Shown here: piece after piece, positions 9,262-48,972 of the stretch | Position numbering within the stretch: the first letter of the stretch is position 1 | Layout: every line of letters begins with the position of its first letter | Assembly: GCA_024408565.1 (NCBI GenBank) | Contig: JAKSUW010000001.1 | Span: 28,498 to 92,497, forward strand | DNA from: Bacilli bacterium | GTDB taxonomy: Bacteria > Bacillota_I > Bacilli_A > RFN20 > CAG-826 | Direction of reading: 5' to 3' | DNA: 64,000 bases | Program-made: the position numbers and the translations under genes | The notes under the pieces: generated by a model | Told to the model about the DNA's origin: nothing | Databases searched by the model: none | Seen by the model: the letters and a program-made list of their open reading frames with translations, nothing else

Positions 9262-9597
9262 TTGGTCTCCGACCCGATAAGCCATGTTTTGTCGTGGGTG
9301 ACAATTTATCTAAGCATTGCTTATAGGTCCTCACTTCAGTTCGTGGTTCCTATTTCCCTTACCATTATTTAGGTTTCTCGCTTGTGGGGTTTACCAACGT
9401 TTCACTCTGCTAATTCCTTAGCAGCTCGTCTCTGTGGCACTTTCAGGAGCTTATTGTCCTTTAGGGATGCGGCTCCGCCGTTATACACCGCTATACCTAG
9501 CGTTATTTTTTCCGCTAGCACAATCACTACTAACATCTCAGTTAGTGCGAGCATGGACTTTCCTCTAGTTAACTAGTAGTCACCTAGGTCGGAGTGT
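9262..9597 (-). ncRNA. rnpB: RNase P RNA, type B.
   Basis: The minus strand contains UAGAGGAAAGUCCAUGCUCGCAC (P4 region), which matches B. subtilis rnpB as I remember it. The P1 helix is CUCCGACC (5') paired with GGUCGGAG (3'). A TTGCAA-17-TAATAT promoter sits just upstream and a terminator downstream. Confidence 0.85.
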
Positions 9598-15943: not shown

Positions 15944-16429
15944 ATGAAATTAATAAACATTAAAAAAGAGAAAGATGCCTTAAAGGAATTATCAAAATTA
16001 AAAAGAAGGGAATATGTCTATAGTGAAATTCGAATAGACAACATCCACCTCAAACATTTAAACCTTCTTGTGAAAGACTACATTTTCACTAAAAACGCAA
16101 TATATGTCAGACCGAGTACATTATGGGCAACTATGAAAAGTGGAGGAAGAAATAATTCACATAATTTCCATGCACTGTCTATTGAAGAAGCATTTAAAAC
16201 CCTTAATGCTATAGATCATCCTAAAGAAATATATGAATCCTTAAAAAGAAGCAAAAGATACATTATCGTAACCGATGTTTTGTTTAAGAACAAAATAAAT
16301 ATTATTGTAATAATCGAAAAGGATGTTGCATTAATCAATAAAATAGATGCTAACATTAACAAAATCATTACTATTTATCCAAAAGATAAGATATCTTTGC
16401 TAAACAATAAGTTACTTTACAAAAGATAA
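15944..16429 (+). CDS. Hypothetical protein (161 aa), compositionally foreign (very AT-rich, AGA/AGG and ATA codons).
   Basis: Intact ORF. GC is clearly below that of the flanking genes and Arg is encoded by AGA/AGG, unlike the host genes that use CGN. No Shine-Dalgarno sequence before the ATG. Confidence 0.45.
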   Translation: MKLINIKKEKDALKELSKLKRREYVYSEIRIDNIHLKHLNLLVKDYIFTKNAIYVRPSTLWATMKSGGRNNSHNFHALSIEEAFKTLNAIDHPKEIYESLKRSKRYIIVTDVLFKNKINIIVIIEKDVALINKIDANINKIITIYPKDKISLLNNKLLYKR

Positions 16430-16570
16430 AAGAAAAAGAGAGCCGAACGGTGCTCCAATTGCATTCCATGGACTCTCAATTCAATTATCATTATATATTA
16501 GTATTTAATAAAAACAAGATGGTAATAAAGAAAAACCTTTTTTAGGCACTATTTTAACGAAAAGTTCAAT

Positions 16571-16861: not shown

Positions 16862-16912
16862 TTATATTTATTATATAAATATATTAATAAATTCGCGTCT
16901 TTTAACGCTCTT
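16862..16912 (+). promoter_or_regulatory. Copy C of the conserved ~45-bp promoter-proximal box (…ATAAATATATTAATAAATTCGCGTCTTTTAACGC…), upstream of the 16942 gene.
   Basis: It is the reverse complement of the box found at 38096-38150 and 38672-38725. The CGCGTC core lies about 45 nt upstream of the ATG. A likely -10 TATATAAG is at 16921-16928 and an AGGAGG RBS at 16930-16935. Confidence 0.5.
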
Positions 16913-16941: not shown

Positions 16942-17244
16942 ATGGATAAATATCAAAGTGAATTCATGAATGCATTAGAGGTGATGGAGGTTTTAAAAAA
17001 ATGTCCACTAGATATATTTCTTAAGGTGTATCATAAAATTAAAGGAACACCCGGTAAGATAGTAATGAAAAAGAAAACGCACAAAGTTACATTAGAACAA
17101 GTCGTTAATATGATGAACGACGGTTTTAAGAAGATGGACGCGAAAATGGACGCTGGGTTTAAACAAGTTAACACGCGGATTGACGGTATTGAAGCGCGTC
17201 TAGACTATAACGGTCTTAAAAAGTTACCCACCAATTACAAATAA
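16942..17244 (+). CDS. Small coiled-coil protein, paralog of the 38156-38644 protein (the shared C-terminus GFKQVNTRIDGIEARLDY resembles the Mollicutes DUF16 family).
   Basis: 100 aa. The C-terminal 25 aa are near-identical to the C-terminus of the 162-aa repeat protein. Good RBS. Confidence 0.5.
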   Translation: MDKYQSEFMNALEVMEVLKKCPLDIFLKVYHKIKGTPGKIVMKKKTHKVTLEQVVNMMNDGFKKMDAKMDAGFKQVNTRIDGIEARLDYNGLKKLPTNYK

Positions 17245-37614: not shown

Positions 37615-38073
37615 TTATACAATATTACTTCCGTCTTCGCTTTTAATTATTTCCAGGACCGTTTGGCCCCCCGCTCCGTTATTTAAAATGACCCCATTTT
37701 TGACTTCTAAAATCGATGGCGTGCCAATAATAAACACATCCATAATATCGGTTTTTCCTAATGTCTCTTCTACGTCACCATCTGGATAAACAACATAGCC
37801 TTCTGCACAAAAATAAATGGTCTTGTTGCCATGTAAGGCATACTCAATCACTTCGTTTTTAATTTTGTGGCATGAACGACAATGAACACCATAGCAATAT
37901 AGGTAATAGTGATCTTCTGGCTGGCTAAATAATGTCTCCCATTTTCGCTCAAGATGTTCGACCTCGCTATAATCGTGAACCGGAATCACCGGATCACTAC
38001 CTCCACCTCCACTATTAGCACACGCAACTAATGTTAGAGGGGTTAATAAAGTTAAAAATATTTTTCGCATCAT
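37615..38073 (-). CDS. Thioredoxin-fold lipoprotein with an unusual CRSC active-site motif.
   Basis: Lipobox LTLVACANSGGGG. …HYYLYCYGVHCRSCHKIK… (strand-CxxC-helix) and …GTPSILEVKNGVI… (cis-Pro-like region) follow the thioredoxin pattern. Confidence 0.45.
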   Translation of the reverse strand: MMRKIFLTLLTPLTLVACANSGGGGSDPVIPVHDYSEVEHLERKWETLFSQPEDHYYLYCYGVHCRSCHKIKNEVIEYALHGNKTIYFCAEGYVVYPDGDVEETLGKTDIMDVFIIGTPSILEVKNGVILNNGAGGQTVLEIIKSEDGSNIV

Positions 38074-38095: not shown

Positions 38096-38150
38096 GGAAA
38101 AAACGATTAAATGACGCGAATATTTACTTATATTTATTTATAAATATAAT
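38096..38150 (+). promoter_or_regulatory. Copy A of the conserved ~45-bp box (AAAAACGATTAAATGACGCGAATATTTACTTATATTTAT), about 40 nt upstream (gene sense) of the thioredoxin-like lipoprotein gene.
   Basis: About 85-90% identical to copy B at 38672-38725. The GACGCG core is at 38112-38117. Confidence 0.5.
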
Positions 38151-38155
38151 TTTTA

Positions 38156-38644
38156 TTACTTAGCGCTCGCACTAGGGAGGTCTTTAAGACTATTGGCTTT
38201 AACAATATAATCAAGGCGATTTTCTAATTTATCAATTCGGGCGTTAACTTGTTTAAAACCTTTATCAACTGTTTCTGCTAAAACCATAACAGTAGTGGTT
38301 AATTGATCCACGCGCTTACTTAGTTTATCCACTGTACAACTAATTTGATCAACCCGCTTACCGAGCTTATCAACTGTATAACCAATTTGATCAACCCGCT
38401 TACCGAGCTTATCAACTGTATAACCAATTTGATCAACACGCTTGCCTAAGTTATCGACAGTATTGCTTAGTTGATCAACCTTCTCACCTACTTGATTGAG
38501 TGTATATTTTTTCTTTCGTTTCGGATTTTTAGGTTTCACTAGTTTGTCTCCTTTTTCATCATACACCGGAATTTTGTATAGATGGGATAAATTATCGGGA
38601 ATTTTTCTTATTTCTCCGACGGTCATCAATTTTTTCTTTTCCAT
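38156..38644 (-). CDS. Repeat-containing coiled-coil protein (DUF16-like C-terminus), paralog of the 16942 gene.
   Basis: 162 aa. Internal 14-aa tandem repeats (VDKLGKRVDQIGYT ×3 plus degenerate copies). The C-terminus GFKQVNARIDKLENRLDY is shared with the 100-aa paralog. Confidence 0.6.
   Translation of the reverse strand: MEKKKLMTVGEIRKIPDNLSHLYKIPVYDEKGDKLVKPKNPKRKKKYTLNQVGEKVDQLSNTVDNLGKRVDQIGYTVDKLGKRVDQIGYTVDKLGKRVDQISCTVDKLSKRVDQLTTTVMVLAETVDKGFKQVNARIDKLENRLDYIVKANSLKDLPSASAK
38263..38505. repeat. About six tandem 42-bp repeats inside the coding sequence. Units 38347-38388 and 38389-38430 are identical.
   Basis: GATCAACCCGCTTACCGAGCTTATCAACTGTATAACCAATTT ×2 perfect copies, flanked by diverged 42-bp copies. 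In frame (14 aa per unit). Confidence 0.85.
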
Positions 38645-38671: not shown

Positions 38672-38725
38672 TAAAAACGCATTAATTGACGCGAATATCT
38701 TTTTATATTTATAGAATAAATATAG
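38672..38725 (+). promoter_or_regulatory. Copy B of the conserved box (AAAAACGCATTAATTGACGCGAATATCTTTTTATATTTAT) in the divergent region between the repeat-protein gene and the membrane-protein operon.
   Basis: The GACGCG core is at 38688-38693, about 45 nt upstream (gene sense) of the ATG at 38644. TTGACG…TATATT also reads as a plus-strand promoter toward 38752. Confidence 0.5.
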
Positions 38726-39636: not shown

Positions 39637-39959
39637 AGTTTTTAAAACGCTTCGGCCTTGGCATCCTCTACATTATCATTTCCCCTTTTTTAGTCGCCTT
39701 TTTAGCACTATGGCTAGCTTACAACATTATTACTTATTTTATTGAAGTGATAAGAGGCATCAAACATTTCTTTAAGGGCGAAAAATTCTTCGCTCCGTTT
39801 CCTGAAGAAGTACAAGCGAAAGCGATTTTAAATACCTATACCGCAACTGGCGCCACTACTAAAGAAACACCAGCTGAACAAACCGCGCCTGCAGCAACGT
39901 CAACACCAGAAGTAGCGCCAGCGGTAAACCCAACACCAGGAGACAACCAACATGTTTGA
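39630..39959 (+). CDS. Small membrane protein with an Ala/Thr/Pro-rich disordered C-terminal tail.
   Basis: 109 aa, 1-2 TM helices. Overlaps its upstream and downstream neighbours by 7-8 nt, so is likely translationally coupled. Confidence 0.4.
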   Translation: MLEFLKRFGLGILYIIISPFLVAFLALWLAYNIITYFIEVIRGIKHFFKGEKFFAPFPEEVQAKAILNTYTATGATTKETPAEQTAPAATSTPEVAPAVNPTPGDNQHV

Positions 39960-48338: not shown

Positions 48339-48887
48339 TTATTGTATTTCTTTTATCTTTGGATACTTTTGGTTAATAATTTTTAATGGTTTTAAAAGTA
48401 ATAAAGATATAGTAATCGCAATTGCTCCTGATATAAAAATATACGGGGCGTTATAAATAAGCGCAGGTACAAACGCTAAATCATAAATAAAAATACTTGA
48501 TAAGGTCGAAGCGATGTAGCGGAGTAAAACCGCTAATAAAGAAGTGAGGAATAGATAAACATAACTCATTTTGTTCTCCGCTAAAATCTTTTTATTCATA
48601 AGTGAAATAAAAACGACACCACTATAAGCTAACGCGTAATCAAGTGGATAAGTAATAATGCCGTGTCCACTAGTTAAACAAGCAATAAGACCATAAACCA
48701 CGCTACTAGCGATTAAGCTTTTCCACCAACTATGACGAATCGCAATAATAAATAAAGGAACCATTGTAAAAGAAATCGAACCCGCGTCCGAAGCAATATG
48801 AATTTTAAAGACGGGTAAATTTAAAACAATCGCGATGGCACTGAAGATAGCGATTTCGGTAATATCTCGAATTGTGTATTTATTCAT
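48339..48887 (-). CDS. thiT: ECF transporter S component, thiamine-specific (ThiT-like).
   Basis: ~183 aa 6-TM ECF-S-like protein directly downstream of a TPP riboswitch. The true start MNKYT is at 48887; the ORF-track start at 48905 lies inside the riboswitch. Confidence 0.7.
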   Translation of the reverse strand: MNKYTIRDITEIAIFSAIAIVLNLPVFKIHIASDAGSISFTMVPLFIIAIRHSWWKSLIASSVVYGLIACLTSGHGIITYPLDYALAYSGVVFISLMNKKILAENKMSYVYLFLTSLLAVLLRYIASTLSSIFIYDLAFVPALIYNAPYIFISGAIAITISLLLLKPLKIINQKYPKIKEIQ

Positions 48888-48889
48888 TT

Positions 48890-48972
48890 TTCCCTCCGCT
48901 AGCATTACCTAGATCAGGTATGGTCGGCTTCACGCCCTCTCAGCCAGTTTCCTAGCTCCCAAAAAGTATTAT
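48890..48972 (-). promoter_or_regulatory. TPP (thiamine pyrophosphate) riboswitch controlling thiT.
   Basis: The minus strand reads GGGAGCUAGGAAACUGGCUGAGAGGGCGUGAAGCCGACCAUACCUGAUCUAGGUAAUGCUAGCGGAGGGA. It contains CUGAGA and ACCUGAUCUAGGUAAUGCUAGCGGAGGGA (about 25 of 29 nt identical to the THI-box consensus as I recall it). The GGAGGG SD is part of the closing helix. Confidence 0.85.

Follow-up and report, generated by a model that had tools for sequence, protein, structure and literature searches.

In-frame copy-number differences of a 42-nt tandem repeat in a small coiled-coil protein gene of uncultured horse-gut Bacilli

Background

The window, by which we mean the whole 64-kb stretch of DNA analysed, includes a small gene with perfect tandem copies of a 42-nt unit inside its coding sequence. 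The question that this raises is whether the gene differs in length between close relatives, and if so what kind of protein it is that has a middle part of variable length. We think it likely that the locus is an in-frame VNTR, in which 42 nt encode 14 aa or two heptads, and that it lies in the rod part of a small, probably cytoplasmic protein belonging to a multi-copy family.

The repeat array

The gene and the repeated parts of it are as follows.

38156..38644, minus strand, coiled-coil protein gene, 162 aa (from the ORF list, translation, heptad layout, AlphaFold2 and family alignments)
38198..38491, minus strand, entire stretch that encodes the 14 heptads (coiled coil) of residues 52-149 (from translation, AlphaFold2 and allele alignment)
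38303..38470, minus strand, in-frame minisatellite of four 42-nt units, each 14 aa or 2 heptads (from TRF, self-match and unit identities)
38342..38437, minus strand, 96-nt stretch with perfect 42-nt periodicity, including a 54-nt exact self-overlap (from exact self-match)

TRF gives a period of 42 at 38303-38443, with 3.4 copies, 90% matches and a score of 219, and also a longer call at 38303-38480 with 4.2 copies and 84%. The score of 219 is by far the highest for any tandem repeat in the window, the next being 75 and then 61, and the array is far beyond chance expectation. There is an exact period-42 self-match of 38342-38395 to 38384-38437, and it follows that 38347-38388 and 38389-38430 are identical and that 96 nt are perfectly periodic, in agreement with the preliminary description, in which these two units were given as 100% identical and in tandem. 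Comparison of successive units with the perfect unit gave the following identities.

38471-38512 (5' side of the gene), 27/42, marginal
38429-38470, 30/42 (71%)
38387-38428, 42/42
38345-38386, 42/42
38303-38344, 34/42 (81%)
38261-38302 (3' side of the gene), 18/42, background level

The background for these figures is given by the other 42-mers in the window, which have a mean of 10.9/42 and a maximum of 24, and on that basis there are four clear units and one marginal unit. The preliminary description had about four diverged copies flanking the identical pair, and while diverged copies do exist the total has to be revised from two plus about four to four clear units plus the marginal one. Relative to the perfect pair the outer units carry 8 and 12 substitutions, a good many of which are synonymous, and thus most of the array is not recent. 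Each unit translates as [L/I][S/G]xTVD[K/N]L[G/S]KRVDQ, which is two heptads and confirms that the unit is a 14-aa block in frame and compatible with a heptad pattern. The array is thus made up of head-to-tail copies of 42 nt, or 14 codons, within an open reading frame, and, as discussed below, copy number differs between related genomes. The 96-nt perfect stretch is most likely the part that would serve as substrate for slippage or unequal recombination.

The protein and its predicted structure

The gene starts with ATG and has a ribosome-binding site, AAGAGGT, 8 nt upstream. The N-terminal part of the protein has a short helix, then a basic linker (KPKNPKRKKK) and a KYTLNQ motif, and is followed by a heptad helix of about 100 residues and a conserved C-terminal RLDYIVKANSLKDLP tail. 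The heptads of residues 52-149 run unbroken as VGEKVDQ LSNTVDN LGKRVDQ IGYTVDK LGKRVDQ IGYTVDK LGKRVDQ ISCTVDK LSKRVDQ LTTTVMV LAETVDK GFKQVNA RIDKLEN RLDYIVK, and the repeat-unit heptads keep strictly to a period of 7 residues, V being at position a and L or I at position d. In an AlphaFold2 monomer prediction residues 49-150 form one continuous helix (pLDDT about 85-97), with low confidence for the N-terminal 48 residues. The periodicity, the hydrophobic a and d positions and the long predicted helix are those of a canonical heptad coiled coil, and as far as sequence and model go the product would be the small coiled-coil protein that had been proposed. The best PDB and Pfam cross-matches are to trimeric coiled coils, which is no more than suggestive as to the oligomeric state.

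No signal peptide, lipobox or hydrophobic or membrane segment is present in the 162-aa protein, which begins MEKKKLMTVGEIRK; the N-terminus, MEKKKLMTVGEIRKIPDN, has no hydrophobic core and no Cys, and the same is true of the family members that were examined. With no signal peptide the protein is probably cytoplasmic.

The exact 162-aa sequence is not in a collection of 15 billion proteins, and its sole other record is a 489-nt sequence in GCA_024500515.1. It may be that in the deposited MAG the gene is unannotated, has been given another start or was assembled differently. The 100-aa paralogue in the same window (see below), unlike the 162-aa protein, is present in the protein collection, as NCBI MAG protein MJ207_00205.

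Alleles at the same locus in close relatives

Two other proteins, P0001 (120 aa) and P0002 (106 aa), are near-identical to the 162-aa protein, with the same N-terminal and C-terminal parts, and differ from it in the number of heptads alone. The loci have a common gene order, with genes for a DUF2232 membrane protein, the coiled-coil protein, a 152-aa lipoprotein, PcrA, LigA and GatC (as in L002 and L003), and in 100-nt windows on either side of the gene the identity among loci is 95-100%, with 94-96% identity over the wider 1.5-10 kb. In a four-way DNA alignment L001 lacks exactly 126 nt (3 units) relative to the window, while L002 and L003 lack 147 nt (7 heptads) and also a separate 21-nt heptad (DKLENRL). 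All gaps between alleles are multiples of 21 nt and are confined to the heptad region at 38198-38491, so comparison of the locus across related genomes gives in-frame indels of 126, 147 and 21 nt only within that region. The variable segment has 9, 3 or 2 heptads in the alleles, and no indel disturbs the reading frame or the phase of the heptads. It had been predicted that the length would vary between strains, and lengths of 162, 120 and 106 aa at syntenic loci with such similar flanks support the conclusion, as drawn from the alignments, that copy number of the 42-nt array differs between close relatives at one locus.

The window and all of the other alleles are from short-read metagenome assemblies. 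The second record of the 162-aa allele, GCA_024500515.1, may share its data set with the window and is perhaps not independent. The 120-aa allele is from another run, on a Logan contig for which short k-mers were presumably used and which could in principle under-represent perfect copies. The 106-aa allele is in the horse-faeces genome MAG342, on a 275-kb contig, and is identical in the independent Logan assembly SRR17543911.

It could be argued that short-read assemblers have expanded or collapsed a perfect repeat and that there is no biological difference in length, and the metagenomic origin of all the sequences, the 54-nt exact self-overlap within the array and the fact that two Logan contigs stop just downstream of the gene all make this worth considering. 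However 54 nt is shorter than the usual Illumina read and than the larger k-mers of MEGAHIT and SPAdes. In addition the units remaining in the shorter alleles carry substitutions of their own relative to every unit of the window, and these alleles are thus not simple collapses of the window array; a separate heptad (DKLENRL) is also missing elsewhere in P0002, the 106-aa allele is the same in the MAG contig and in the independent Logan contig, and differences in heptad number recur in many members of the family. We consider an assembly artefact very unlikely.

A different view would be that the expansion is old, lineage-specific and fixed, the identical pair being the last duplication or a gene-conversion patch in an array that is now stable. 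There are only three alleles, each from a separate lineage, and with these lineages about 94-96% identical overall the differences could indeed be old, fixed events. The outer units are 71-81% identical to the inner pair and many of the differences are synonymous, which fits such a history, and the tandem-repeat numbers of the DUF16 genes of M. pneumoniae are reported to be unchanged on strain passage (PMC3472980). On the other side, two 42-nt units with zero differences indicate at least one very recent event, and heptads have been gained and lost repeatedly and independently in the family, even between P0022 (96 aa) and P0164 (107 aa), which are more than 90% identical. A fixed expansion is possible, but we find it somewhat doubtful.

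The paralogue family

A HMMER profile made from the first matches and run against 1.84 billion representatives gave 534 proteins at E<=1e-3, and among the matches listed about 40 fit the profile nearly end to end. A C-terminal R[LI]DY motif is present in 63 of the proteins collected, which have a median length of about 98 aa, and the 162-aa protein is the longest of the 63, the next being P0003 with 146 aa. The family architecture starts with a short helix (..E..LLKNPSP..), an 'xVxVY' stretch and a basic linker that contains proline and glycine, followed by K(Y/M)TL(N)Q(LG), the variable heptad region and GFKQVNxRID...RLDY(IVKA)N.LK.LP. All of the named sources are 'Bacilli bacterium' MAGs from horse faeces, and the family has so far been found in uncultured assemblies only.

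Adjacent near-identical blocks of 7 or 14 aa are present in about 14 of the 63 members. P0003, encoded at L007, has 7.9 copies of a 21-nt unit; the 135-aa gene of L014 has 14-aa repeats; P0004 and P0015 also show expansions; P0164 and P0022 (above) differ by heptads; and in P0053 and P0099 it is a different segment (RLDYNGLQIEQINK) that is repeated. Members of the family have expanded heptad or 14-aa blocks independently, and some have done so in another segment.

One paralogue without expansion is in the window itself.

16942..17244, plus strand, paralogue of 100 aa without an expanded array, identical in sequence to P0017 / MJ207_00205 and with the same architecture (palindrome at 16863-16883, see below)

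Relative to its positional orthologue in MAG342, with which it has the neighbours MuF_C, ferredoxin, rpsI and rplM in common, the coiled-coil segment of this paralogue is 71% identical, with gaps, and the flanks are 98-100% identical. There is a 12-nt tandem duplication within the gene, at 17130-17153.

Tandem clusters of three family genes are present at L012 (1501-2684) and L014 (1-1213), each gene having its own palindrome. A 109-aa paralogue at L012 has as its first 47 residues exactly those of P0022, which is from another locus, followed by a different coiled-coil tail, and comparison of these two sequences is suggestive of gene conversion among paralogues or of an exchange of domains.

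Identity of the family and comparison with known systems

The 162-aa protein has a match to the Mycoplasma DUF16 family (PF01519), and if this is a true relationship the repeat would simply be the VNTR phenomenon already known for DUF16, now in another host. The Pfam score of 44.2 bits is above the 40-bit cut-off, DUF16 is the family with matches to the largest number of members of a small alignment (five of nine at E<=0.01), and the biology is the same, with multi-copy paralogues, 21-nt and 42-nt indels and short intergenic repeats beside the genes. However the match is restricted to the heptad array, where it is one among dozens to unrelated coiled-coil families. Of 10 typical members two match, at 17.3 and 23.5 bits and thus below the cut-off, and the others do not match at all; P0002 has no precomputed Pfam domain; and no chain named Mycoplasma or DUF16 is in the best 60 PDB rows for either the protein or the family profile. 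Since unexpanded orthologues and typical members do not reproduce the DUF16 assignment we have treated it as a coiled-coil cross-match, and we regard membership of DUF16 as unlikely.

The best 60 rows of the PDB search with the protein (E up to 1), and the best 60 of 143 in the search with the family profile (E up to 10), are to generic coiled coils. The top PDB matches, to 'SAKe' designer propellers, are spurious, being sums of six sub-threshold repeats that match the N-terminal region. The best-scoring named coiled-coil matches are Pfam LPP (32.3 bits) and HSBP1 (32.9 bits), and in PDB spike HR1, Lpp and YadA. For typical family members no Pfam or NCBIfam model was matched. A leucine zipper of the bZIP type was considered and rejected, as the bZIP_1 score, 25.4 bits, is below the cut-off of 27.6 and the basic stretch, which has prolines in it, is predicted to be non-helical. 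A phage XhlA or holin-associated protein and an anti-phage defence protein were likewise rejected, as PHROGs and PADLOC give only coiled-coil cross-matches and the neighbours are housekeeping genes; there was no PHROGs or PADLOC match for the unexpanded paralogue, and NCBIfam gave no specific match for the 162-aa protein. No relatives were found on scanning JGI metagenome contigs and IMG/VR viral contigs with the KYTLNQ motif.

The best-scoring named matches, Braun lipoprotein Lpp, HSBP1 and viral HR1, are short trimeric coiled coils, and as the length of Lpp sets a physical distance there is an analogy to a 'molecular ruler'. The differences are that the matches are confined to the heptads and disappear in unexpanded members, and that there is no lipid anchor in the protein discussed here.

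The variation seen at the locus is of a familiar type, as a coding VNTR has already been described in coiled-coil genes of M. pneumoniae, and by analogy we take these as the closest known parallel. DUF16/RepMP1 has more paralogues than any other family in that genome, and its proteins are conserved in the proximal part and have a variable distal coiled coil of direct 7-aa repeats (PMC3472980). Strains differ by in-frame indels of 21-nt and 42-nt tandem repeats, with VNTRs in mpn127, mpn137, mpn501 and mpn524, and the indels are attributed to slipped-strand mispairing and unequal crossover and have been put to use in MLVA typing (PMC3472980). Beside the genes there are short intergenic repeats (sRepA and sRepB), domains are exchanged between paralogues, and mpn130 is flanked by sRepB direct repeats that mediate its deletion and is missing in some strains (PMC3472980).

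The family in horse-gut Bacilli likewise comprises multi-copy small coiled-coil proteins with 21-nt and 42-nt in-frame indels, and has intergenic short repeats, direct repeats that bracket a gene (compare mpn130) and domain exchange between paralogues. It differs in that no homology to DUF16/RepMP1 is demonstrable outside generic heptads, the host is an uncultured lineage of horse-gut Bacilli, the motifs are KYTLNQLG and RLDYIVKANNLKDLP, and in place of sRepA or sRepB the intergenic element consists of a short AT palindrome and a leader. By this comparison the family has apparently repeated independently the poorly understood organisation of DUF16/RepMP1, and it could for that reason help to explain the purpose of rod proteins of variable length.

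The locus is in itself one more in-frame coding VNTR, and a possible strain marker for an uncultured horse-gut lineage. The wider value is in a multi-copy family of small coiled-coil proteins that is unannotated and has no Pfam or NCBIfam model, with recurrent heptad changes, domain exchange and a palindrome of its own, and we see the family and its private palindrome as a more interesting by-product than the repeat itself.

The AT palindrome and the adjoining lipoprotein gene

The coiled-coil gene is bracketed by 40-nt direct repeats at 38098-38137 and 38673-38712, which are 83% identical, and each copy has at its core an AT palindrome.

38704..38724, unstranded, AT palindrome TATATTTAT-AGA-ATAAATATA, 60-80 nt upstream of the ATG (core of direct-repeat copy 38673-38712)
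38129..38148, unstranded, second palindrome TATATTTAT-TT-ATAAATATA (core of direct-repeat copy 38098-38137)
37615..38073, minus strand, 152-aa lipoprotein gene with a lipobox-Cys signal peptide and a CRSC motif, no Pfam match (from the ORF list and 5' comparison)

The first palindrome is in the divergent intergenic region that the coiled-coil gene has in common with the DUF2232 gene, and the second is between the coiled-coil gene and the lipoprotein gene, just downstream of the stop codon of the former and upstream of the latter. In the window there are exactly three occurrences of the pattern TATATTTA-N3-6-TAAATATA, where chance would give 0, and the three palindromes are those upstream of the coiled-coil gene, of the adjoining lipoprotein gene and of the paralogue at 16942-17244. 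No genome that lacks the coiled-coil gene was found, despite the bracketing direct repeats.

The consensus for the palindrome is TATATTTAY-N0-3-RTAAATATA, with a loop of 0-3 nt. In eight further loci every strict match is 60-110 nt upstream of a family gene, with none elsewhere in the sequences examined; L007 is the exception in having only a looser copy (position 2006). The positions in other loci are as follows.

L008, 3802
L009, 3793
L010, 3895
L013, about 1422
L012 (cluster), about 1420, 1883 and 2330
L014 (cluster), about 230 and 699

In L010, L013 and L007 the innermost pair of the palindrome is changed from T-A to C-G on both sides, and this double change, together with a loop that varies from 0 to 3 nt, is no less compatible with a hairpin than with a binding site for a dimer. 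As RNA the palindrome forms a 9-bp A-U hairpin in all six of the sequences folded. The z-scores for the whole leader are unremarkable (about -0.9), except in the case of the paralogue (-3.85), and a structured RNA leader is thus not established. A promoter scan gave only consensus-level matches, 5 against 3.7 expected, and does not firmly place a promoter relative to the palindrome. ATATTCGCGTC and the rest of the leader are common to close paralogues and the lipoprotein gene, and we infer that the palindrome is a shared promoter or operator, or alternatively a hairpin or other 5' element.

The whole 5' region of the lipoprotein gene, comprising palindrome, ATATTCGCGTC and leader, is homologous to that of the family genes, and with all three elements the same the lipoprotein gene is probably co-regulated with the coiled-coil family genes.

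A search of the whole window with Rfam found two RNAs only, both far from the coiled-coil locus.

9273-9591, minus strand, class B RNase P RNA
48874-48972, minus strand, TPP riboswitch

Class B RNase P is typical of low-GC Gram-positive bacteria, in agreement with the 'Bacilli bacterium' labels. A gut bacterium of this kind (Bacilli/Mollicutes), the presence of tandem in-frame repeats, which are typical of size-variable antigens, and an adjoining lipoprotein gene with a common upstream element could together suggest that the coiled-coil protein is a surface antigen of variable size, comparable to the Vlp and Vsa lipoproteins of mycoplasmas, for evasion of host immunity or phage. It is well known for bacterial in-frame VNTRs, as in the M-like coiled-coil proteins of streptococci and in Vlp and Vsa, that slippage or recombination alters copy number while the frame is kept. 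However those proteins are secreted or anchored at the surface and under immune selection, whereas the 162-aa protein has no export signal, lipobox or hydrophobic segment, as is also the case for the family members examined, and in the AlphaFold2 models of the 162-aa protein and of the paralogue at 16942-17244 there is nothing beyond a short helix, the basic linker and the long helix. A surface antigen seems to us extremely unlikely.

A possible mechanism and role

The mechanism that we propose for the gain and loss of units is replication slippage or unequal recombination between the tandem copies, for which the 54-nt exact self-overlap would be the best current substrate. Each added 42-nt unit would make the coiled-coil rod about 2 nm longer, and with a rise of about 0.15 nm per residue, the standard value for a coiled coil, the alleles would span about 7-15 nm of helix. 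More tentatively, the protein may be an oligomeric spacer or scaffold with a middle part that tolerates changes in length, in which interactions would be made by the conserved ends, namely the N-terminal helix with its basic linker and, at the C-terminus, the RLDY..N.LK.LP motif, and the family may be expressed from a shared promoter or operator that is marked by the AT palindrome.

A more far-reaching proposal, which we put forward as an idea and think decidedly unlikely, is that the genes with their private AT palindrome and leader make up a self-contained system of recombining paralogues, comparable to RepMP1/DUF16 but of independent evolutionary origin, in which the proteins would be oligomeric zippers that bind the palindrome. 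The proline-rich and glycine-rich basic arms would then lie directly N-terminal to the helix, and the palindromes before the family genes and the CxxC lipoprotein gene would be the sites bound. If true, horse-gut Bacilli would have a previously undescribed class of small DNA-binding proteins, autoregulatory or nucleoid-associated, whose coiled-coil length would either drift freely or be tuned by repeat number.

Other divergent segments in the window

Two further segments of the window are divergent from MAG342 in well-conserved surroundings. An ORF of 161 aa with a phage MuF C-terminal domain, at 15944-16429 on the plus strand, adjoins the ferredoxin gene, and its 3' part (16240-16439) is 85-86% identical to MAG342 where the surroundings are 98-100% identical. 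The other, at 39656-39955 on the plus strand, belongs to an ORF of 109 aa that lies downstream of the DUF2232 gene, of which ORF it is the Pro/Ala/Thr-rich C-terminal part, and is only 84-88% identical to MAG342 in surroundings that are 96-99% identical.
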